Positions 14,081-25,762 of a DNA stretch of 64,000 nucleotides are shown in pieces (position 1 is the stretch's first letter; each line of letters opens with the position of its first letter). Under the pieces are notes generated by a model. It was not told where the DNA came from. It made no database searches and was given only the letters and a program-made list of their open reading frames with translations. Position numbers and translations under genes: made by a program. Source of the stretch: Candidatus Tepidifontimicrobium thermophilum. Its GTDB lineage: Bacteria; Sysuimicrobiota; Sysuimicrobiia; Sysuimicrobiales; Sysuimicrobiaceae. The stretch spans positions 1 to 64,000 of the forward strand of contig JAVKHO010000012.1 of assembly GCA_031459915.1 (NCBI GenBank). Reading direction: 5' to 3'.

Positions 14081-14770
14081 TCACGCGCGCGGGCGCGGCC
14101 TCCTCACGCGGACGGCCAGCAGTTCGCCTTCAGACACCGCCACCCACGCAGGCTCCTCTGTGACCTCGTTGCTGACCCCGAGGGTGCTGCCGAGGGTCAG
14201 GGTGCCGTCCACCAGAGCAAACCGAAGGCCGCCTGTGTGGATTCCCGAGCTGTGGGGCCGCAGGGAGAACAAGGACACCCAGTCGCCCACGCGGGCGTCC
14301 AGCTCCACCCGGCCCCGCACGAGCTGCACCAGGGTCCCTCCGGCCACTACCCGTAGGTCCACCCCGCGGTCCGCCGCGTAGCGGGGCAGGAGCAGGTTGG
14401 CGAGCTCGTGGTCCACCCGCTTCCCGATCCCGCCCAGGAGGTAGGCGGTGCGGAAGCCCCGTTCCGCCACCACGTCCACCGCCAGCTCGCTGTCCGTCTT
14501 GTCCTTGGCCTCGGGGTAGCGGAAGCGCTCGGCCCCCACCTGCTCCAGCCAGTTCACCAGGCCAAGGTCCAGGGAGTCCCAGTCCCCCACCACCACGTGC
14601 GGCCTCCAGCCCGCGCGGTGGGCCCGGGCCACGCCGCCGTCCGCGCACACCACGAGGCTCGCGGCACGGTAGCGGCGTGGCAGCGGACCGCGCCCTCCGG
14701 CCACGATGGCTGCGTACGGCTCCTCCGGCCTCACGGAAGGCATGGTAGCCTGGAGGACCGACGCGGGCAA
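14081..14770 (-). CDS. thiN: Thiamine diphosphokinase
   Basis: CADGG, VGDWDS, KDKTD.ELA, G.R.DH, LGVSNE; start could be ATG 14743. Confidence 0.92.
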   Translation of the reverse strand: MPASVLQATMPSVRPEEPYAAIVAGGRGPLPRRYRAASLVVCADGGVARAHRAGWRPHVVVGDWDSLDLGLVNWLEQVGAERFRYPEAKDKTDSELAVDVVAERGFRTAYLLGGIGKRVDHELANLLLPRYAADRGVDLRVVAGGTLVQLVRGRVELDARVGDWVSLFSLRPHSSGIHTGGLRFALVDGTLTLGSTLGVSNEVTEEPAWVAVSEGELLAVRVRRPRPRA

Positions 14771-14816
14771 AGCCCGCCTGAATCCGGGGTGACGCGGCCG
14801 CGTCGCCGCGCAGGCT

Positions 14817-15335
14817 TCAGTCCGACCTTTCCGAGGGCGCCGGGAGGGCGCGCAGGACGAGCAGGGTCAGCACCACGCTGACCACCACCTCCGGCAGCAT
14901 GTAGGAGCCGTTGTACGCCGCAGAGTACACCCACGGACTGGTCCCCCGCGGCGCGTACTGGGCGAAGAACACCACCCCGCTGAGGAGGTGGGAGACGAAC
15001 CGGCCCGCCCCGCCCACCACCACGCCCAGCCAGGGCAGATGCGGGAAAAAGCCCGCCAAGCCGAGGGCGCCAAACGCCACCGGGTAGTCCAGCAGGAACT
15101 GCACAGGGTGGACGAACACCGGCTCCAGTACGAAGTTCACCAGCCCCAGCAACACACCGGCTGCGATGCCCGTGCGCGGTCCCCACCGCAGGCTCAGGTA
15201 GAACACCGGCACCATGCTGCCCGCGGTGATGGAACCTCCCTGGGGCAGCTGGTACACCTTCACCAGGCCCAGGGCGGCGCCCAGGGCGACGGCGATCCCG
15301 GACTCCGCCAGCTGCCGCGTGCGCAACGACTTCAC
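14817..15335 (-). CDS. thiT: ECF S-component, thiamine transporter ThiT
   Basis: PQGGSI, HPVQFLLDYP.AF, SGVVFF..YAP, YS..YNGSY; GTG start at 15335. Confidence 0.92.
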   Translation of the reverse strand: MKSLRTRQLAESGIAVALGAALGLVKVYQLPQGGSITAGSMVPVFYLSLRWGPRTGIAAGVLLGLVNFVLEPVFVHPVQFLLDYPVAFGALGLAGFFPHLPWLGVVVGGAGRFVSHLLSGVVFFAQYAPRGTSPWVYSAAYNGSYMLPEVVVSVVLTLLVLRALPAPSERSD

Positions 15336-16153
15336 CCTGCACCTCCCCCCGCGGCCCCGTCCGGCCGCAACCACTGGAACAGCGGGTTGCACGGCCCGAC
15401 CCCACGGCCCAGGGGCAGGCCGTACCGGATGGCCTCCGTCACGAACTCCTTCCCCTTCCTGACGGCTTCCCGGACGGACAGGCCCCGGCTCAGGTACGCC
15501 GCGATGGCCGCGGACAGCACGCAGCCCGTCCCGTGGGTGTGGCGGGTAGACAGGCGCTCTGCCCGCAGCTCCTCGAACCCGTCCCCGTCGTAGAACACGT
15601 CCACGGGGTCGCCCTCCAGGTGGCCGCCTTTCACCAGGACCGCCCTCGGCCCCAGGTCCCGCAGGGCACGCGCGGCGTCCCGCATGTCCTCGACTCCCCG
15701 GATGGGCCGGCCCAGCAGGGCTTCCGCCTCCGGCAGGTTGGGGGTGATGACCAGGGCCAGGGGCAAAAGCTGCGCCCGCAGGGCGTGCTGTGCTTCCGGC
15801 CGCAGCAGGGGCGCGCCGCTTTTGGCCACCATCACGGGGTCCACCACCAGCCGATCCAGCCGGTGGTGGCGGACCCGGTCCGCCACCGCCTCGATGATGG
15901 GCACGCTGCTCAACATGCCCGTCTTGGCCGCGTGCACCCCGATGTCCTCCACCACCACGTCGATCTGCCGGGCCACCACCTCCGGGGGCACCTCGTGCAC
16001 CGCGTACACCCCCGTGGTGTTCTGGGCGGTCAGCGCGGTAATCGCACTCATTCCGAACACCCCGAGGGCCGAGAAGGTCTTGAGGTCCGCCTGGATGCCA
16101 GCCCCTCCCCCGGAGTCCGAACCCGCGATCGTCAGCGCCTTCGGTACCGTCAC
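15332..16153 (-). CDS. thiD: HMP/HMP-P kinase
   Basis: IAGSDSGGGAGIQADLKT, VDPVMVAKSG, TPNLPEA, HGTGC. Confidence 0.96.
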   Translation of the reverse strand: MTVPKALTIAGSDSGGGAGIQADLKTFSALGVFGMSAITALTAQNTTGVYAVHEVPPEVVARQIDVVVEDIGVHAAKTGMLSSVPIIEAVADRVRHHRLDRLVVDPVMVAKSGAPLLRPEAQHALRAQLLPLALVITPNLPEAEALLGRPIRGVEDMRDAARALRDLGPRAVLVKGGHLEGDPVDVFYDGDGFEELRAERLSTRHTHGTGCVLSAAIAAYLSRGLSVREAVRKGKEFVTEAIRYGLPLGRGVGPCNPLFQWLRPDGAAGGGAG

Positions 16154-16800
16154 CTTTCCGCACCTCCCCGCTCCTGCAGTGCCGCGTCCACCACCTCCCG
16201 CAGCCGTCGGGTGGCTTCCACCATGTCGTCCGCTGCCGCCACCGCGGAGACCACCGCCACCCCCGCGGCGCCCGCGCGGATTACCTCCGCGGCGTTGTCC
16301 AGGGTGATGCCGCCGATGCCCACCACCGGGATGCGCACCGCCTCCACGATCCTCCGCAGGCCTTCCGGACCGATGGCACCTCCCGCGTCCGGCTTGGTGG
16401 CGGTGGGGAACACGGGCCCCACGCCGAGGTAGTCCGCGCCGTCCGCCTGGGCTCGCAGCGCCTCCTCCACGGTGCCCGCAGAGGCTCCCACGACCCGGTC
16501 CGGACCCAGAAGCCGGCGCGCGTCCGCCACGGGCAGGTCGTCCTCTCCCACGTGGGCGCCGTCCGCCTCCGCCGCCAGGGCCACGTCCACCCGGTCGTTC
16601 ACCACGAAGGTCGCCCTCGCCCTGCGGGTCAGGGCGCGGAGCTGGCGGGCCCACTGCACCAGCTCCCGGCCGCTGGCCTGCTTGTCCCGAAGCTGCACCA
16701 CCGTGGCTCCTCCCACCAGGGCCGCGCGCGCGACGTCCTCGTGGCTTCGGCCGCGGAAGGTGCGGTCGGTGATCACGTACACCCGCAGATCCAGCCGCAC
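16150..16800 (-). CDS. thiE: Thiamine-phosphate synthase
   Basis: QLRDK, VNDRVD, H.G.DD, GPVFPTATK, IGGI. Confidence 0.96.
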   Translation of the reverse strand: MRLDLRVYVITDRTFRGRSHEDVARAALVGGATVVQLRDKQASGRELVQWARQLRALTRRARATFVVNDRVDVALAAEADGAHVGEDDLPVADARRLLGPDRVVGASAGTVEEALRAQADGADYLGVGPVFPTATKPDAGGAIGPEGLRRIVEAVRIPVVGIGGITLDNAAEVIRAGAAGVAVVSAVAAADDMVEATRRLREVVDAALQERGGAER

Positions 16801-16801
16801 C

Positions 16802-17635
16802 TCACCCCCCGTGCGGAGCCGCGGGCAGTTCCACCAGGCTCGCGCGCACGCCAGCCCGCAGGTCCTGCGGCTGGAGGCGGGCCAGCTGGTCCAGGAGGGC
16901 CACCCGGAAGCTAGCAGGCCCACAGGCCTGTTCGGCCGCCCGCTCCGCAGCGTAGCCGAAGTACGCTAGCGCCGCAGCAGTAGCTGTGAGGGGGTCGTCC
17001 GCCACCGCGAGGAAGCACGCCACTACCCCGCTGGCCATGCAGCCGGCCCCTGCCACACTTCTCAGCCACGGGTGCCCGTTGTCCACGGCCACAAACCGCA
17101 CGCCGTCTGCGACCCAGTCCCGCGGCCCGGTCACTGCAGCCACCACGCGGTGACGCCGCGCGACCTCCCGGGCCACCTCCTCCGGAGGGCTTGCCGCCCC
17201 CACGGACTCCACCCCGCGCAGGAAGCCTTCCCCTCCTGCCAGGTGAGCCATCTCCGCCAGGTTGCCCCGCACCGCGGTAACCGGAAGTTCCCGCAACAAG
17301 CGCCGGGCTGCGTCGGCCCGGAGTTTGGTGAGGCCGACCCCCACGGGATCCAGCACCACCGGCACCCGGCGTTCGCCCGCCCGGCGGCCCGCGAGCAGCA
17401 TCGCCTCCACCCGGCGGGGCGTGAGGGTGCCCAGGTTCAGCGCCAGGGCGGAAGCAGTCGCGGCCACCTCCTCCACCTCTTCACAGGCGTGGGCCATCAC
17501 GGGGAGGGCGCCTGTGGCCAGGGTGGCGTTCGCCACGTCGGTGGCGCTCACCACGTTGGTGATGTGGTGCACCAGGGGCCGGAGGCCGCGGACCCGGTCC
17601 AGGAGTTGCGCGCTGACTTCGCCGAGCGGCTCCAA
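16802..17635 (-). CDS. thiM: Hydroxyethylthiazole kinase
   Basis: PLVHHITN.V, NLGTL, VLDPVG, RGN..E, GAGC. Confidence 0.95.
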   Translation of the reverse strand: MEPLGEVSAQLLDRVRGLRPLVHHITNVVSATDVANATLATGALPVMAHACEEVEEVAATASALALNLGTLTPRRVEAMLLAGRRAGERRVPVVLDPVGVGLTKLRADAARRLLRELPVTAVRGNLAEMAHLAGGEGFLRGVESVGAASPPEEVAREVARRHRVVAAVTGPRDWVADGVRFVAVDNGHPWLRSVAGAGCMASGVVACFLAVADDPLTATAAALAYFGYAAERAAEQACGPASFRVALLDQLARLQPQDLRAGVRASLVELPAAPHGG

Positions 17636-17639
17636 CCCG

Positions 17640-18992
17640 CTACCTCCGCCGTGCCAGGACGGCGTACAGCACGAAGCTCAACGCCAGGCTGGGCAGCGAA
17701 CCGCCGAGCCAGGGGAGGTGGCTGGAGAGCGGGAAGGGGGCTCCTGTGGCCCCGAACAGGGACGACAGCAGGGCCTTCCAGCCAGGGATCTCCGTGGGGA
17801 CGATCCACTGGTACACCACAAACCCCACGAGCCAGGAGACGAAGCCGGGCCAGCGCGGTGCCCGGGCTGCGGGACCGTACAGGTCGTCCGGGAAGACGCG
17901 GCGCCGCCGGACCACGAAGTAGTCCGCGGCCAGGACCCCGAAGAGGGGCACGAAAAAGGCCCCGATGAGGAACAGGAACGACTCGTACTGCACCAGGGGT
18001 ACCGTGGCCGCGAGGGCTGAACACACCACCCCGGCTCCCACCGCCAGCTGCTTGCGGTTCGCCTGCGGCCACAGGTTCTGCAGGGACACCGAGGTGCTGT
18101 AGATGTTGGCGAACGCCTCGTCCGTCTCGTCCACGAGGAGGATGGCCAGGGCCACCGCCCCCGCAGGGATGGCCAGCACCGCGGCCACCAGGTCCTCCGC
18201 CCGCAGGGCCAGCATGAAGAGGGCTCCCAGGCCGTAGAACCACACGTTGGCCAGGCCGTAGCCCACCGCGGTGCCCCAGAAGGCACCCCCCGGTCGGGTG
18301 GCGAAGCGCGTGTAGTCGGCCACCAGGGGGATCCACGACACCGGCATCGCCACCACCAGGTCCACACCCAGCCAGAAGGACAGCTCCCCGGTACCGGGCC
18401 GGTTCCACAGGGTGGCGATGTCGAAGCGCGCCAGCGCGTACCACGTCAGGTACACGGTGGAGGCCAGGACGAACCAGATGGCGTAACGGCGCAGCCACCG
18501 CCGGACCACCACGATGGGCCCGCCCACCGCCATCAGGGTGGTCAGCAGGCCGAAGAGGGCCACCCACGCCACGTAGTTGGACGCGCCCAGCAGCCGCCGT
18601 GTGATGGCGTCGGCGCTGGTGGCGATGATGAGGATCTCGAAGGCGCCCCAACCGATGTTCTGCAGCACGTTCAGGGCCGTGGGCACCGCCGAGCCGCGGA
18701 TGCCCAGAGGCGCGCGCAGGAGGACCATGCTGGGCGCCCCCACCTCGGCACCGATCCACGCGGCCACCCCCAGCAGCAGGTTCCCCAGGACGGCTCCCAC
18801 CACCGTGGCGAGAAGCGCGTCCCGCAGCCCCAAGCCGGGCACCAGCAGCGCCCCGGCGACCAGCAGCAGCAGGCTCACCCCGAGGTTGAACCACAGGACG
18901 AACACCTCCACCGCGGCCAGGGGCCGCTGCTCTGTGGGGATGGGTTCAACGCCCCACTCGGCGGCAAGCGTCGCTTCCCGGGCGTCCGCCAT
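17640..18992 (-). CDS. cytX: NCS1-family putative hydroxymethylpyrimidine permease
   Basis: Multi-pass membrane protein; NVLQ..GW..FE, AMP.SW.PL.ADY.RF, FANIYS; thi operon context. Confidence 0.85.
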   Translation of the reverse strand: MADAREATLAAEWGVEPIPTEQRPLAAVEVFVLWFNLGVSLLLLVAGALLVPGLGLRDALLATVVGAVLGNLLLGVAAWIGAEVGAPSMVLLRAPLGIRGSAVPTALNVLQNIGWGAFEILIIATSADAITRRLLGASNYVAWVALFGLLTTLMAVGGPIVVVRRWLRRYAIWFVLASTVYLTWYALARFDIATLWNRPGTGELSFWLGVDLVVAMPVSWIPLVADYTRFATRPGGAFWGTAVGYGLANVWFYGLGALFMLALRAEDLVAAVLAIPAGAVALAILLVDETDEAFANIYSTSVSLQNLWPQANRKQLAVGAGVVCSALAATVPLVQYESFLFLIGAFFVPLFGVLAADYFVVRRRRVFPDDLYGPAARAPRWPGFVSWLVGFVVYQWIVPTEIPGWKALLSSLFGATGAPFPLSSHLPWLGGSLPSLALSFVLYAVLARRR

Positions 18993-19483
18993 CAGGCCAC
19001 CACCTCCGGCACCGCCCGCGCCCGCACCAGGGCCTGCAGCACCAGCCAGCCGAGCACCGCGCCGGGCACGCTGCTGGCCAGGAAGAGGGGCAGGAGTGTA
19101 GATAGCGGAATGGCCTTCCCCATGAAGAGGGGCGCCACCAGGAGGCTACCGAGGGTGGCTCCCACGGGGCCGGTGCCCACGGGCTCCAGCAGCCCCGCCC
19201 AGGCGTGGCGCCACCACCGGTACGCGAAGCCCACCACCAGGGCCCCGGGGATCCCTCCAGGGAACGCCAGCAGGGTGCCCACGCCGAACAGGTTACGGAG
19301 CACCGCGGCCAGGGTCGCGGCCAGGGCCGCGTACCACGGCCCCAGGACTACCCCCGCCACCGCGTTGGTCATGTGCTGCCAGGGCAGCAGCTTCGCTCCG
19401 GCCACCGGGATCGACCCCGGCACGAAAGACAGGACCACCGGGACCGCTGCGAACACTGCGGTGAGGACCAGCTTGCGCGTCAT
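18992..19483 (-). CDS. thiW: ECF S-component ThiW (thiazole precursor)
   Basis: P.QH..N...GV.LGPWY, LRN..G.GTLLAFPG, EP.GTG..G, SS.PG. Confidence 0.9.
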   Translation of the reverse strand: MTRKLVLTAVFAAVPVVLSFVPGSIPVAGAKLLPWQHMTNAVAGVVLGPWYAALAATLAAVLRNLFGVGTLLAFPGGIPGALVVGFAYRWWRHAWAGLLEPVGTGPVGATLGSLLVAPLFMGKAIPLSTLLPLFLASSVPGAVLGWLVLQALVRARAVPEVVA

Positions 19484-20103
19484 GGTTCGCCTCCTTCCCA
19501 CGTCATCTCCCAGAAAGCCCGCTCCAGCTCCGCCACCCGCCGGAAAGCCTCCTCTGCAGCCTCCTGTTCCGCTGCGGAGGCAGGCCCTAGCGCCCGGCTG
19601 GCGCACGACTCGAGTGAAGCCACGTACTGCGCGAAAGCCGGCTGCGTCCAGCGGCGTACGAAGTCCCGGTACGGCTCGGCACCTGGCGCGGCACCTGTCC
19701 AGGCGTCCAGGTACGCCCGCTCGCACGCCCACAGGGCGGTGATCTGTGCAGGGTACGGCGCGTGGCGCAGCGACTGGAGGAAGTCCACGTACTCGCGGCA
19801 GGTGGGGTGGACCTGGACGTCCAGGGCCAGGCCGCGCTCCCGGGCATGGCCCTCGAACCAGTCCAGTTCGTCCACCAGGGCCAACAGTCCAGAAGCCACC
19901 ACCCGCTGGTCCGGCCGCGGGGCGGCGGCCAGGACGTACGCCTGTGAGGTCAGCAACCCGCGGACGAAGTGGTAGTCCTGGACCAGCCAGCGGCGGAACG
20001 CGGGTTCCGGCAGGGCTCCCGTGCGCACGCCCTCCAGGAAGGGGTGGCGCGTGGCACTGTCCCACAGCGCGCGGTACCGCACGAGCAGCGTCTGCGGGCT
20101 CAC
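19480..20103 (-). CDS. TenA family protein, TenA_E-like
   Basis: HPFL, WLVQDY.F, WACERAY, E..FW; GTG start at 20103. Confidence 0.85.
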   Translation of the reverse strand: MSPQTLLVRYRALWDSATRHPFLEGVRTGALPEPAFRRWLVQDYHFVRGLLTSQAYVLAAAPRPDQRVVASGLLALVDELDWFEGHARERGLALDVQVHPTCREYVDFLQSLRHAPYPAQITALWACERAYLDAWTGAAPGAEPYRDFVRRWTQPAFAQYVASLESCASRALGPASAAEQEAAEEAFRRVAELERAFWEMTWEGGEP

Positions 20104-20720
20104 ACAGACCTCCACGCGCTGTCGAAGAACTCGTACTCCAGCTGCATGGCCCGCCGGTACAGCTCCTCCAGCCGGGCTCGGTCCCCGCCGTAGCGGTCCA
20201 GCAGCCCCTCCAGGGTCTGCGCCAGCCGCTCGAACTCCGGGCTGCCGTACGTGCGCACCCACTCCCCGTACGGGCTACCCTCCCGCAGGACTGTCTGGAG
20301 CCGGGAGCCCAGGTACGCGTACAGCCGCATGCACGGGGTCTGGGCCGCCACCCCGTGTCCGACGGGTTCCAAAGCCGCGGTGCGCAGCAAGAAGTCGGTG
20401 TACGCGGAGGTGGCGGGCGCCGGGGACGGCTGCAGGTCCACGCCCCACCGCCGCGCGTACTCCCGGTGCAGCCGCAGTTCGTCCACAGCACCGTCCAGCA
20501 GGGCCTTGAAGGTCACCAGGCCCTCCCGGTCCGGGGCCTTGGCCAGCAGCAGGGCGTAGGCCCGCACGAACGCGTCAAGGAAGTAAGCGTCCTGCCCCAC
20601 GTAGAACCGAAAGCGCTCCAGGGGCAGTTCGCCGGAGGCGATGCCCTGCAGGAAGGGGTGGTTCGAGCACGCCTCCGCCAGCTCCGCGTTAGCCCGCCAG
20701 AGTTCTTCTGCCAGTCCCAC
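20100..20720 (-). CDS. tenA: TenA family thiaminase II / aminopyrimidine aminohydrolase, TenA_C-like
   Basis: HPF..GI..G.L, YVGQDA.FL, PCMRLY (catalytic Cys), LEYEFF; GGAGG then GTG at 20720. Confidence 0.9.
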   Translation of the reverse strand: MGLAEELWRANAELAEACSNHPFLQGIASGELPLERFRFYVGQDAYFLDAFVRAYALLLAKAPDREGLVTFKALLDGAVDELRLHREYARRWGVDLQPSPAPATSAYTDFLLRTAALEPVGHGVAAQTPCMRLYAYLGSRLQTVLREGSPYGEWVRTYGSPEFERLAQTLEGLLDRYGGDRARLEELYRRAMQLEYEFFDSAWRSV

Positions 20721-20782
20721 ACGCACCTCCCACACAAACACGACCGCCAGGCCCGAGCAGGACCTGGCGGTTTCTGGGGTCT

Positions 20783-20892
20783 CGCCACTTCCCCACGCCA
20801 GCATTACCTGGATCGGGTCTTCGGGGTCTGCGGCATTGGCCCGCTGGGCCGGCCGCACTCTCAGCCCGGCTCTTCCGAGCTCCCCCAGGGCT
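20783..20892 (-). ncRNA. TPP riboswitch
   Basis: GGGG...GCUGAGA...ACCC...ACCCGAUCCAGGUAAUGCUGGCGUGGGGA core directly upstream of the thi operon; boundaries approximate. Confidence 0.93.
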
Positions 20893-20929
20893 TGCTATGC
20901 GGTTTTGCGCGGCAGCTCGCCGCACCCTC

Positions 20930-20956
20930 ATTATCGCACGGCCCGTCGTCTGTCAA
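20930..20956 (-). promoter_or_regulatory. Putative thi operon promoter
   Basis: TTGACA-N15-GATAAT (short spacer), overlapping the pdxT stop codon. Confidence 0.5.
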
Positions 20957-21537
20957 CCCACTCCGCCCGCGGACGCCGCCAGGCTGCAGAAGTACCGGTG
21001 CACGCCGGTGTAGCCGGTGATCTCCGGGTGGAAGGTCGCACCCAGCAGGCGCCCCTGTCGGACCAGCACCGGCAGCCCCTCGTGGCGGGCCAGGACCTGT
21101 ACCCCTTCGCCCACCCCCGTGATCACGGGCGCGCGGATGAAGGCCACGCGGAAGGGGTTGGGGTCCACCGCAGGGCAGGCGAGGTCGTCTTCGAAGCTCT
21201 CCCGCTGCCGCCCGTACGCGTTGCGCTCCACCGCCACGTCCATCAGGCCCAACAGAGGGGGTTCACCCCCCGAGGCGCGACGGGCCATGAGGATCAGCCC
21301 CGCGCAGGTACCGAACACCGGCATCCCCTCCTGCGCGCGGCGGCGGATGGCCTGGTCGAGCCCGCAGCGCGCCATGAGGGCGCCCAGGGTGGTGCTCTCG
21401 CCGCCCGGCAGGACCAGGGCCTGGACGTCCTCCAGCGCCTGCGGCGTCCGCACCAGGACCGGCTCGGCTCCAACCTCGCGCAGCACCTGCGCGTGCTCGG
21501 AGACGTCTCCCTGCAGCGCCAGCACGCCGACCCTCAC
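20953..21537 (-). CDS. pdxT: PLP synthase glutaminase subunit
   Basis: GVLALQG, PGGESTT, GTCAG, RNAYGRQRESF, FIRAP, FHPE. Confidence 0.97.
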   Translation of the reverse strand: MRVGVLALQGDVSEHAQVLREVGAEPVLVRTPQALEDVQALVLPGGESTTLGALMARCGLDQAIRRRAQEGMPVFGTCAGLILMARRASGGEPPLLGLMDVAVERNAYGRQRESFEDDLACPAVDPNPFRVAFIRAPVITGVGEGVQVLARHEGLPVLVRQGRLLGATFHPEITGYTGVHRYFCSLAASAGGVG

Positions 21538-21564
21538 GAAAACCACCTCCTCGCGGCCAGGCTG

Positions 21565-22455
21565 TCACCCGCCCCGGGTCTGGAGGAGCTCTGCGGGCTC
21601 CAGCCGCCGCACGTCCAGTCCCCGCATAGGCTCGCCCAGACCCTCGCAGGCCCGCGCCACCGCGTCCGGGTCGTCGTAGTGGGCCACCGCGTCCACGATG
21701 GCCCGCGCCCGGCGGGCCGGGTCTTCGGACTTGAAGATCCCGCTTCCCACGAACACGCCGTCGCAGCCCAGCTGCATCATCAGGGCCGCGTCCGCGGGCG
21801 TGGCGATCCCGCCCGCGGCGAAGTTCACCACGGGCAGCCGGCCGAGCCGCCGCACCTCCAGCACGAGCTCGTACGGCGCCCGCAGGTCGCGGGCGGCGGT
21901 CATCAGCTCCTCCTCCGGCAGGGCCTGCAGCCGGCGGATCTCGTCCAGGATCTGGCGGACGTGCCGTACCGCCTCCACCACGTTGCCCGTGCCCGCCTCT
22001 CCCTTGGTGCGGATCATGGCCGCGCCCTCCCCGATGCGGCGCAGCGCCTCCCCCAGGTCCCGGGCCCCGCACACAAACGGCACGCGGAAGCGCCGCTTGT
22101 CGATGTGGTGCTGCTCGTCCGCGGGGGTCAGGACCTCGCTCTCGTCGATGAAGTCCACCCCGATGGCCTCCAGCACCTGGGCCTCCACGAAGTGGCCGAT
22201 CCGGACCTTGGCCATCACGGGGATGGTGACCGCGGCCATGATGGCCTTGATGCGGGCGGGGTCCGCCATCCGGGCCACGCCACCCTCCGCCCGGATGTCC
22301 GCGGGCACCCGTTCCAGCGCCATCACCGCCACCGCACCCGCGTCCTCCGCGATGCGCGCCTGCTCCGGGGTGGTCACGTCCATGATCACCCCGCCCTTCA
22401 GCATCTGCGCGAGCCCTCGCTTGACCCGCTCCGTCCCGACCTCGCGCAACTGCAT
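21565..22455 (-). CDS. pdxS: PLP synthase lyase subunit
   Basis: [40 protein letters not shown]. Confidence 0.98.
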
Positions 22456-23462
22456 CACCTCCCCACCTGCGTCTGCTGCTCTAGCCGTTCCAGGGCGCGC
22501 CACAGCTCGTCCACGGGATACGGCTCCAGGGGCTCCCGCTGGCAGCCCAGGACCTTCCAGTTGCCGCGCTCCACGAACCTCCCCACCACCGCCGCAGGGA
22601 CTCCCGCCTCCTCCAGGGCGGCCACGGTGCGGTCGGGCACCGGGGTGGCCACCAGCAGCGCCCCGCTGCTCACGAGCCCCAGGGGGTCTACGTCCACCAG
22701 GGAACACACCGCCTCGGTCTCCGGCCGCACAGGAACACGGTCTGCGTACAGCTCCACCCCCACCCCGGAGGCGGTGGCCATCTCCACCGCCGCGGCCAGG
22801 ATCCCCCCTTCTGTGGCGTCGTGCATGGCCCGGGCACCCGCCCGGACCGCCGCGCGGCCGTCCCGCACCACGCTGATCTCCTCCAGGAACGCCTGGGCCC
22901 GCTGTACCACGTCCGCTCCCAGGTGCCGCCGGAAGTACGCTTCGAAGTCCGAAGCGAGGATCGCGGTCCCCTCGAGCCCGGCGGCCTTGGTGAGGACCAA
23001 AAAGTCCCCGGGTCGGGCCCCGGAGCTGGTGACGAAGGCGTCCCTGCGGGCCCGGCCCACCGCGGTGGTCACCACCAGGGTCCTCGGCAGGTCCGCGGTC
23101 ACCTCCGTGTGCCCGCCCACGATCTCCGCCCCCAGCTCCGCGGCGGCCTGTCCTGCCTGCTCCATCAGCTCCCGTAACTCGTCCTCCTCCGCGCCTTCCC
23201 GGAGCAGGACGTCCATCAGCAGCGCCACCGGCTCGGCACCCGTGGCCGCCAGGTCGTTGGTGGCCACGTACACCGCGATCCGGCCCAGGTGGCGGGTGGC
23301 GCCCGTGATGGGGTCGGTGGTGAGCACGCACACCCACTCGCCGAAGTCCACCACGGCACAGTCCTCTCCCACCCGCGCCCGGACCAGGACCTCCGGCCTG
23401 CGGCCCAGGTGCGGGTACACCAGCCGCTCCAGGAGCTCGGGCGGGACCTTCCCCACCCGCAT
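22455..23462 (-). CDS. AIR synthase-related (PurM/HypE/SelD/ThiL superfamily) protein of unknown function
   Basis: [53 protein letters not shown] at 23462. Confidence 0.88.
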
Positions 23463-23980
23463 CAGCGGGGAGCCACCACGCCCCGGAGGACCGAGGAGCC
23501 GGCTAGCCCCACCACGACCCCGGACAGCACCTGGAACAGGTTTCCGGGGACCTCCGTGGCTGCCGCGTGGGGCCCCAGACCCAGCAGGAACGCCTCGCTC
23601 ACGTAGTACCCGGCCACCATCCAGGTGCCCGCCACCGCACACGCGACCACCGCGCGGGCAGCCCAGACTGCACCCGCAGCCTCCGGCCCCCTCAGCACGC
23701 GCCAGAACAGGTAGCCTGCCAGCCAGCCTTCTACGGCCTTGATCACCAGGGTGAACGGCGCGAACTGGGCGTAGCCGCCCAGCAGGTCCGCCAGCGCGGA
23801 TCCCACGCCGCCCGCCACCAGCCCGTGGACCGGACCCAGCAGCAGGGCCGTCAGGTAGATCACCGTCTCACCCAGGTTGATGTAGCCCTGGGTCGCGGGG
23901 ACGGGGATCCGGATGGCCAAGGTAGCGGCGGCCACCAGGGCCGTGGCCAGTGCTCCCGCGGTCAGGTCCCGGGTACTCAC
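23462..23980 (-). CDS. ECF S-component, probable vitamin B6 substrate (PdxU2/HmpT-like)
   Basis: IP.P.T.GY.N.G, G.GSALAD...GY...AP.T..IK..EG, N..Q; first gene of the pdx operon. Confidence 0.8.
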
Positions 23981-24041
23981 CCTCCACCTCCCTGCAACGA
24001 GGTCGGTTGCGTCGCCACCTACCGCCGTAGCTTACCGGCAC

Positions 24042-24090
24042 AAGTGGTTTGCAAAAACGTCCACTTTCGTCCAAGATGCAAATGCCACCT
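24042..24090. promoter_or_regulatory. Putative PdxR operator
   Basis: AT-rich intergenic with AAGTGG (24042-47), inverted CCACTT (24061-66) and a third CCACCT (24085-90). Confidence 0.55.
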
Positions 24091-24092
24091 CC

Positions 24093-25541
24093 ATGGAGTT
24101 GAGCTTCACGCTGCGGGGAAGGCCCAGGGCGCAGGAGCTGGCCCAGCAGATCCGCTTTGCCATCCTCGAGGGCCGGCTGAGGGCTGGGACCCGCCTGCCG
24201 TCCACCCGGGCCCTGGCGGAGTCTGTCGGCTGCTCGCGGACGCTGGTCACCGCAGTGTACGAGGAGCTGGTCGCAGAGGGTTACTTGGAGGCCCGGCGGG
24301 GGTCGGGCACCTACGTGGCGGCAGAGCTGCCGGTGGCTTCGGTGGTAACGGAAGGCCTCACAAGCCCCCCTCCTAAGTGGTTGGAACCCCTGCGGGACCC
24401 CGACGGTGACTCGCCCGGCTCGGACGAGTGCCGGGTGGACTTCACCCTGGCCCGCCAGGTGGTGGAGCCCGTGAGCCGGCGCAGCTGGGCCCGCATGTGG
24501 CGGGCGGTGGGCCGGCAGAGCCCGCCCCGGGACGCCGGGCCTCCCGAAGGCGACCCGGGCCTGCGGGAAGCCATCGCCGAATACGTAGGCCGCGCCAGAG
24601 GACTGCGCTGTGGCCCGGACGACGTCGTGGTCACCACGGGCGGGGTCCGCGCCCTGGACCTCGTGGCGCAAGCCGTACTGCGTCCCGGGGACCCTGTGGC
24701 CGTGGAGGAACCCGGGTACCCGGCGGCGCGGAGGACCCTCGAGGACCGGGGAGCGGTCCTGCTGCCCGTACGCGTGGACGACGACGGGCTGCACGTGGTC
24801 GAGCTCGGCAGTGCACCCCTGGTGGTGTACGTCACGCCTTCCCACCAGTACCCGCTGGGGGTCCGTATGTCCGTGTCCCGGCGTGTGGCCCTTCTGGAAT
24901 GGGCTGCAAGGCACGACCGCCTCGTGGTGGAGGACGACTACGACAGCGAGTTGCGGTTCGACGGCCCGCCGCTCCCTGCGCTGGCGGGCATGGAGCGGGC
25001 CGGACGGGTGGTATACGTAGGGACGTTCTCCAAGGTCCTGGCGCCCGGGCTCCGGCTGGGCTACGTGGTGGCCCCGAGGTGGCTGCGGGAGCGCCTGGTC
25101 CGTCTCCGGGAACGTTCCGGGGACCGGGTCCCCTGGCCGGTGCAGCGGGCCCTGGCCGCGTTTCTGGGAAGCGGCGACTTCGACCGGCACGTGCGCCGGG
25201 TCCGGCGCCAGTACGCGGAGCGGCGCAGCGCCCTGCGGGAGGCGCTGCAACCGGCGTCGGGCGTCGCGCGCCTGCGGGGGATGGAAGCCGGCCTGCACGC
25301 GTTTCTGCAGTTCACGCCGGAGCTGGACGAGCTCCACCTCGCTGAGGTCGCCCGTCGGCGGGGTGTCCGCGTGAGTCCCCTGGCGCCTTTCTACCTGGGC
25401 ACCCCGGACCGCCGGGGGTGGCTGCTCGCCTACGGCGGGCTGTCGACCCAGCAGGTATGGTGGGGCGCGCGGGTGCTGACCGAGGTCCTCCTGGAGTCCG
25501 TAGAGCTGCGGGCGAAGGAGCCGCTGGGTGGCCGCCCGTGA
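24093..25541 (+). CDS. pdxR: MocR/GabR-family PLP-dependent transcription regulator
   Basis: wHTH LPSTR.LA...SR..V...Y..L..EGY; aminotransferase domain TPSHQYPLG, EDDYDSE, GTFSK; divergent from the pdxST operon. Confidence 0.9.
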   Translation: MELSFTLRGRPRAQELAQQIRFAILEGRLRAGTRLPSTRALAESVGCSRTLVTAVYEELVAEGYLEARRGSGTYVAAELPVASVVTEGLTSPPPKWLEPLRDPDGDSPGSDECRVDFTLARQVVEPVSRRSWARMWRAVGRQSPPRDAGPPEGDPGLREAIAEYVGRARGLRCGPDDVVVTTGGVRALDLVAQAVLRPGDPVAVEEPGYPAARRTLEDRGAVLLPVRVDDDGLHVVELGSAPLVVYVTPSHQYPLGVRMSVSRRVALLEWAARHDRLVVEDDYDSELRFDGPPLPALAGMERAGRVVYVGTFSKVLAPGLRLGYVVAPRWLRERLVRLRERSGDRVPWPVQRALAAFLGSGDFDRHVRRVRRQYAERRSALREALQPASGVARLRGMEAGLHAFLQFTPELDELHLAEVARRRGVRVSPLAPFYLGTPDRRGWLLAYGGLSTQQVWWGARVLTEVLLESVELRAKEPLGGRP

Positions 25542-25762
25542 ACCTGGCCTTCCTGCTGCTGGCCCTCGACGGCAACACACCTGCCCAGGTAGCCCGGGAA
25601 GCCCGGAATCTGCCCGGCGTGTCGGAGGTCTACGCCACCCTGGGGCCCTACGACGTGGTGGTGGTCGCCCGGACAGAGTCCAGCCGGGACATCCCCGCCC
25701 TGGCCGAGCGGCTCCGGAGGATCCACGGCGTCGTTCAGGTGGTGACCTGCGTGGCCGTCTGA
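25538..25762 (+). CDS. Stand-alone Lrp/AsnC ligand-binding (RAM) domain protein
   Basis: 74 aa, GV.EVY...GPYDVV, I.GV....T; GTGA overlap with the pdxR stop. Confidence 0.8.
   Translation: MNLAFLLLALDGNTPAQVAREARNLPGVSEVYATLGPYDVVVVARTESSRDIPALAERLRRIHGVVQVVTCVAV

Follow-up and report, generated by a model that had tools for sequence, protein, structure and literature searches.

A PurM/ThiL-fold protein predicted to act as a vitamin B6 kinase in a pdxR-linked operon of Candidatus Tepidifontimicrobium thermophilum

Pyridoxal 5'-phosphate (PLP) is required by all cells. Which enzyme might make it from salvaged vitamin B6 in an organism without the kinase PdxK is the question raised by a locus of Candidatus Tepidifontimicrobium thermophilum (Sysuimicrobiota), located on contig JAVKHO010000012.1 of assembly GCA_031459915.1, of which forward-strand positions 1 to 64,000 were analyzed and are referred to here as the window. 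An operon divergent from the regulator gene pdxR encodes the S-component of an energy-coupling factor (ECF) transporter, a protein of the PurM/ThiL/SelD fold encoded at 22455-23462 (hereafter the enzyme) and the PLP synthase subunits PdxS and PdxT. From comparative evidence (observed gene order, clade and family membership, conserved ATP/Mg residues, signals of co-regulation, distribution, linkage and an RNA variant) we predict that this enzyme is an ATP-dependent vitamin B6 kinase, a reading to which we give a probability of roughly 0.78, and that it does the job of PdxK in organisms which lack PdxK.

The original prediction, made from the sequence alone, had described this gene order together with 1-nt TGATG stop/start overlaps joining the first three genes. 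The coordinates proved correct, both overlaps are present (23464-23460 and 22457-22453), and PdxS, PdxT and PdxR all scored above their NCBIfam cut-offs (Table 1). Its statement that the locus holds no hyp, pur or sel gene was borne out by a profile search of the window proteins; the other AIRS-fold genes of the host genome are PurL- and PurM-sized genes on contig C2 (judged by size only) and selD on contig C16. The absence of pdxK which it had noted at the locus extends to the genome, which is 96% complete and in which no PdxK or PdxY reached cut-off. With respect to regulation, a predicted PdxR operator, made up of two hexamers in direct orientation and a third inverted, was conserved across 10 aligned upstream regions, and the same layout of two direct repeats and one inverted repeat is given for the B. 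clausii pdxR-pdxST operator in the part of PMC10450172 consulted. The divergent pdxR and this repeat layout mark the operon as a probable member of a PdxR regulon. A terminator-like hairpin (20771-20743) beside a thiamine pyrophosphate (TPP) riboswitch separates pdxT from the thi operon that follows, which is separately controlled and outside the B6 unit.

The enzyme is a member of the PurM/HypE/SelD/ThiL superfamily, as seen in its AIRS and AIRS_C domains, its fold and its acidic residues. Its AlphaFold model (predicted local distance difference test score 96.5) gave TM-scores of 0.7-0.8 to HypE, SelD and ThiL at 20-26% identity, and the ATP/Mg acidic residues D34, D50, D70 and D215 aligned with aspartates of all three. 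The motifs GEDCA, TD, ND, GGHTE and HDATEGG, to which attention had been drawn earlier, are present, and their key residues do not vary among 65 aligned homologues. A tree of 80 proteins placed the 61 bacterial and archaeal family members on a single branch (SH-like approximate likelihood ratio support 99, quick search), the remaining rows being five HypE, seven ThiL-like, three SelD and four PurM proteins. All 55 rows of the main clade keep K5, D34, D50, N69, D70, H118, E164, S197, H214, D215, E227 and S266.

A distinct PurM-like subfamily, as had been proposed, is what these analyses returned: the protein scored below the HypE, ThiL and SelD cut-offs, grouped with neither HypE nor ThiL in the tree, and passed none of the 18 NCBIfam models that it matched. 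Identity as HypE was rejected (TIGR02124, 118 bits against a cut-off of 251.6; position outside the five-row HypE clade; no hyp genes nearby), as was identity as ThiL (TIGR01379, 101 against 184 bits; outside the seven-row ThiL group), as SelD (TIGR00476, 102 against 125 bits; N-terminus MRVGK without Cys) and as a COG2144-type AIR-synthase-like protein such as sll0787 or methanogenesis marker 2 (TIGR04049, 55 against 321; TIGR03267, 60 against 365). Membership of the ribokinase-fold PdxK/PdxY/ThiD2 group was likewise rejected, there being no PF08543 or PF00294 match; the enzyme thus lies outside the PdxK family, though it may function like PdxK. The family comprises 2013 representatives (50% identity) at E 1e-30, a figure which takes in some HypE-level matches. 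It may correspond to the class PurM-like1 (cd06061) of CDD. Its members are named 'AIR synthase family protein' at NCBI, and many are labelled 'HypE' or 'hydrogenase maturation factor' by JGI (P0004, P0016, P0278 and others); judged by the profile and tree tests applied here, these labels are mis-annotations.

Across genomes the family stands in for PdxK and is kept where de novo synthesis is missing. In the host phylum we scored 80 genomes, each at least 80% complete; the tallies take in the unpublished genomes G014 and G019, the latter being the source of locus L111, and no claim is based solely on these two. The enzyme family was found as a single copy in 72 of the 80, while PdxK reached cut-off in none (best score 72 of 231 bits) and pdxJ was likewise found in none. 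The gene pdxS was present in 38 genomes, and of the 42 in which the de novo pathway is missing, 35 have the enzyme gene. Fourteen carriers lack both pdxS and even a ThiD cross-match, and in five of these (92-98% complete) there was no pdxS, pdxJ, PdxK, full-length PF08543 kinase (ThiD) or ThiE (one 26-bit partial match).

The original prediction also expected anti-correlation with pdxK, and this was observed in 200 scored Clostridia genomes (G178 was unscored, and two ThiD-level PdxK matches at 82-83 bits were dropped). The family was present in 69 and PdxK in 114, with both in only 8 against 39.3 expected (Fisher p 3e-22); 61 genomes had the family alone, 106 PdxK alone and 25 neither. Neither gene tracked pdxS (control p values 0.09 and 0.15), and 39 genomes had the family in the absence of both PdxK and pdxS. 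Because related genomes are not independent, an RpoB tree was built for 149 of the 200 genomes. Among 12 independent pairs which differed in the family, PdxK changed in the opposite direction in 6.7 on average, in the same direction in 0.0 and was unchanged in 5.3 (median p 0.016, range to 0.125), and the corresponding pdxS controls gave p values of 0.73 and 0.51. Lineages with PdxK only are nested several times within family-bearing clades. In archaea, we scored 121 genomes from the phylum of G082, an archaeal metagenome-assembled genome titled Nitrososphaerota. The family was present in 91 and pdxS in 56, and by raw counts which ignore kinship the family was found in 63 of 65 pdxS-less genomes vs 28 of 56 with pdxS. 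All 13 archaea without a ThiD/PdxK-type kinase had the family and lacked pdxS.

These distributions also bear on a different role in B6 metabolism, such as using ATP to repair or convert a vitamer that has been damaged or oxidised, or handling an imported phosphorylated vitamer. Linkage points to B6 without specifying the reaction, the fold is known for activating amide or phosphate oxygens, and most carriers have ThiD, which could moonlight as the kinase. However, the mutual exclusion in Clostridia is specific to PdxK and does not extend to PdxS, and some carriers have no ThiD/PdxK-family kinase at all. We consider such a role unlikely.

A second line of regulatory evidence came from relatives without pdxR at the locus (family f3), in which a match to RF00050 (FMN riboswitch) scoring 53-72 bits lies directly 5' of the S-component and enzyme operon. 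An Rfam RF00050 search of 10 genomes gave 18 matches, one of them weak and without the core. All 10 RNAs with the canonical GGATG core stand 5' of ribD (six) or of a PF12822 S-component gene (four). The seven with a GTATG core have a different 3' strand and stand 5' of the S-component and enzyme (four), pdxST (two) or a PF13531 solute-binding protein (one); the last protein is about equally similar to AfuA and to the PLP-binding P5PA (6WCE, E 1e-15). Identity as a canonical FMN switch was rejected for the variant on the grounds of GTATG in place of GGATG and non-rib genes downstream in 7 of 7. The base that differs is immediately 5' of an adenine that we take to be the FMN-pairing A99. The role of A99 in FMN pairing is described in the portion of PMC6298564 consulted. 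A metagenome scan with the variant pattern returned 49 loci, of which two were chance matches. In the 47 counted, the first gene was the S-component in 28 (with the enzyme next in 26), pdxS in 13, the PF13531 binding protein in three, an amino-acid permease in one and unassigned in two, placing the RNA 5' of the S-component operon or pdxST in 41 of 47; near-duplicates are common, the two main classes comprising 32 and 11 distinct sequences when all loci are taken together. In the four cases inspected, the variant RNA is followed by a GC hairpin and a run of T, and in G029 the variant precedes both operons while a canonical switch lies elsewhere in the genome. With PdxR and the variant RNA, two independent regulators thus tie the enzyme to pdxST.

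The match to RF00050, together with the Pfam name of PF07155, could be taken to mean that transporter and enzyme serve riboflavin or FMN, given that the RNA lies directly before their genes in the f3 relatives. The variants, however, are distinct and also precede pdxST, canonical switches in these genomes stand before ribD or another S-component gene, RibF kinase was found in four of five genomes tested, and the window operon is under PdxR, so that we regard a riboflavin role as highly improbable. Published FMN-riboswitch subtypes precede COG3601 or EmrB/NorM efflux pumps as far as PMC6298564 was consulted, and 'pyridox' does not occur in its main text. Our literature search, in which subscription journals were mostly uncovered, returned no report of a PLP riboswitch. 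The variant may be offered as a candidate B6 riboswitch, possibly the first to sense vitamin B6.

With respect to transport, the only PDB match of the S-component was chain S of 4HZU, the L. brevis HmpT (E 2.5e-12), from which pyridoxamine was extracted according to the part of PMC4860826 consulted. Of the six HmpT/PdxU2 pocket residues named there, the equivalents of E41, Y120, N140 and Q143 are kept, whereas H84 is replaced by Lys and Q87 by Glu in 18 of 18 aligned S-component sequences. The S-component is a predicted importer of a B6 vitamer. The proposed linkage of homologues to B6 was seen in bacteria and in archaea alike, in the form of adjoining S-components, PLP enzymes and the RNA motif common to pdxST. 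A PF07155 S-component gene lay within 1.5 kb of the family gene in 18 of 30 loci of the host phylum (window counted in), 16 of the 30 best-scoring archaeal loci and 10 of 80 GTDB loci (the best 80 of 468). In the same 80 GTDB loci, annotated via cluster representatives, a PLP-dependent enzyme of one of eight types was directly adjacent in 27, and glyA adjoined the family gene in 7 of 28 Clostridia loci scanned. As separate observations, a DUF2225 gene lies directly 5' of the enzyme gene in one Clostridia group (L122, L127, L129, L130, L133, L137, L139, L141 and L080), often with glyA 3', and in one archaeon a ComB-like (PF04029) phosphatase gene, possibly for a B6 phosphate, follows the S-component and enzyme (L294:2508-3290).

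In the scheme that we propose, the S-component would import an unphosphorylated vitamer, pyridoxal or pyridoxamine, and the enzyme would move a phosphate from ATP onto its 5'-hydroxyl. A SelD-like dikinase route is considered as alternative chemistry because the enzyme has the N-terminal Lys and the GGH motif of SelD. PdxST would supply PLP de novo, PdxR would turn on the whole operon when PLP is low, as part of a PLP feedback, and in relatives without PdxR the variant RNA and its downstream terminator would take the role of the regulator.

Several points weigh against a B6 kinase. Enzymes of the PurM fold are not known to phosphorylate alcohols; the acceptors of characterised members are phosphate (ThiL), selenide (SelD) and amide oxygen (PurM, HypE). 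PdxK was scored by one model, NF005491, and the counts do not tell ThiD-like PdxK from moonlighting ThiD. Eight of the 200 Clostridia have both genes and 25 neither, 19 of the latter also lacking pdxS. The archaeal figure for pdxS-less genomes drops to 56 of 65 when the score threshold is tightened, and ThiD is present in 108 of the 121 archaea. None of 30 Clostridia loci had an S-component within 1.5 kb of the family gene, and 43 of the 80 GTDB loci had no adjacent S-component or PLP enzyme (pcrA-ligA, vanW, rph or an amidase being found instead); the PLP-enzyme neighbour counts, drawn from related loci with no matched background, are supporting and not decisive. Apart from this, several of the 19 Clostridia without pdxS, PdxK or the family have genomes of 0.8-1.7 Mb, and these organisms may import PLP or use another kinase.

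The remaining contrary points concern thiamine, and the same points favor a rival in which the enzyme is a ThiL-like thiamine monophosphate (TMP) kinase or a hydroxymethylpyrimidine (HMP) kinase whose substrate is brought in by an HMP transporter. The host genome has thiE and lacks thiL, the thi operon directly follows the B6 operon, and thi genes (thiT-thiN or thiMED) often lie 3' of the enzyme gene in the host phylum. In addition, a six-row sister clade in archaea (L375, L377, L361, L368, L369 and L349) is thiamine-linked, five of the six having as neighbor thiD, a cytX-like permease gene or a thiE controlled by a TPP riboswitch. However, the thi genes carry their own TPP riboswitch, located after the enzyme gene, and the sister clade differs at N69, E120, E227, S266 and E319 and is a second copy in 6 of 6 genomes examined. 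TMP and HMP phosphate are of no use to carriers that have neither ThiE nor ThiD. The suggestion of ThiL activity made in the original prediction was weakened further by ThiL above cut-off alongside the enzyme in L006, L011, G001 and G397, and by the five relatives without ThiE and ThiD which keep the gene. A thiamine role for the enzyme is thus improbable. The sister clade itself is likely a thiamine-moiety kinase by its neighbors and residues, and more than one activity is probable within the wider family.

A B6 kinase of this fold would answer a recognized need. In the part of PMC9997740 consulted, a 2023 survey, alternative B6 kinases are described as still to be found and free-living archaea without a known route are listed; the enzyme family is not named there or in the supplements as far as consulted. 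In the portions consulted of the main text and supplement of PMC5320631 it is likewise not named, the one match being COG2144, a different family, and our literature search returned no published link between the family and B6. One named, widespread and often mis-annotated family is now offered as a candidate alternative kinase. If this is true, the PurM superfamily gains a new reaction type, predictions of B6 auxotrophy for gut Clostridia and hot-spring archaea would be corrected, and false hydrogenase-maturation calls would end, while the variant RNA is at hand as a candidate B6-sensing riboswitch. The broader proposition, that a third, structurally unrelated class of B6 kinases with the PurM/ThiL fold closes the gap in salvage across an entire bacterial phylum, one third of Clostridia and most Thermoproteota, and that the variant RNA in control of this gene and pdxST in the phylum senses PLP or another B6 vitamer, is tentative, and we put it slightly short of an even chance.

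Table 1. Features of the B6 locus and its surroundings (window coordinates), with the loci of the variant RNA.
Feature	Position	Strand	Basis
ECF S-component, HmpT/PdxU2 type	23462..23980	-	PF07155 above cut-off
Candidate B6 vitamer kinase, PurM/HypE/ThiL/SelD fold, 335 aa	22455..23462	-	PF00586 (AIRS) + PF02769 (AIRS_C)
pdxS, PLP synthase lyase subunit	21565..22455	-	NF003215, 525 bits vs cut-off 395
pdxT, PLP synthase glutaminase subunit	20953..21537 (alternative start 21546)	-	TIGR03800, 212 bits vs cut-off 105.55
pdxR, MocR-family PLP-sensing regulator, divergent from operon	24093..25541	+	NF052282, 425 bits vs cut-off 320
Predicted PdxR operator	24042..24090	-	Direct hexamers 24090-24085 and 24066-24061, inverted hexamer 24047-24042
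Stand-alone Lrp/AsnC ligand-binding-domain protein, 74 aa, overlaps pdxR stop	25538..25762	+	PF01037
TPP riboswitch, boundary to thi operon	20773..20896	-	RF00059, 56 bits
Variant RNA	L398-L401, L403, L458, L459, L404-L452; none in window		

The Lrp/AsnC gene, which like the TPP riboswitch goes unmentioned in the original prediction, is kept beside the locus across the phylum, even in relatives without pdxR there, and in L038, L050 and L066 a full Lrp gene and an aminotransferase gene lie 3' of the enzyme gene. The thiamine salvage operon under the TPP riboswitch (14081-20896, minus strand) consists of two tenA-like genes, thiW, cytX, thiM, thiE, thiD, thiT and thiN; since the host genome lacks thiL, TMP would need a phosphatase step ahead of ThiN. 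Elsewhere, one open reading frame (L014:7068-8126) fuses an RsmD-like methyltransferase (PF03602) to a CoaD-like nucleotidyltransferase.

Among known systems, the closest in arrangement are the PdxR-pdxKU salvage locus of Streptococcus (PMC11619246) and the PdxR regulons of PMC5320631, in which, in the parts of both sources consulted, PdxR, a PF07155 S-component and a kinase or pdxST form one regulated unit, as in the window; the Streptococcus locus has a ribokinase-fold PdxK where the window has a PurM-fold protein. The nearest protein in fold and sequence is HypE (PDB 3WJP, 2Z1E; TM-score 0.81, 24% identity), with which the ATP/Mg aspartates are common. HypE, however, has GDxK and RDxTRGG where the enzyme has GGH(T)E and HDxTEGG, and the enzyme lacks the C-terminal cysteine motif of HypE. 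ThiL (PDB 3C9T) has the fold in common and is likewise a vitamin kinase, but its acceptor is a phosphate whereas that proposed for the enzyme is an alcohol. With SelD (PDB 3U0O) the enzyme shares GGH and its invariant Lys5, which aligns with Lys20 of the E. coli protein, while the N-terminal Cys/Sec is missing and the host genome has a separate true selD. The variant RNA has its scaffold in common with the FMN riboswitch (RF00050), from which it differs in its core and 3' strand.

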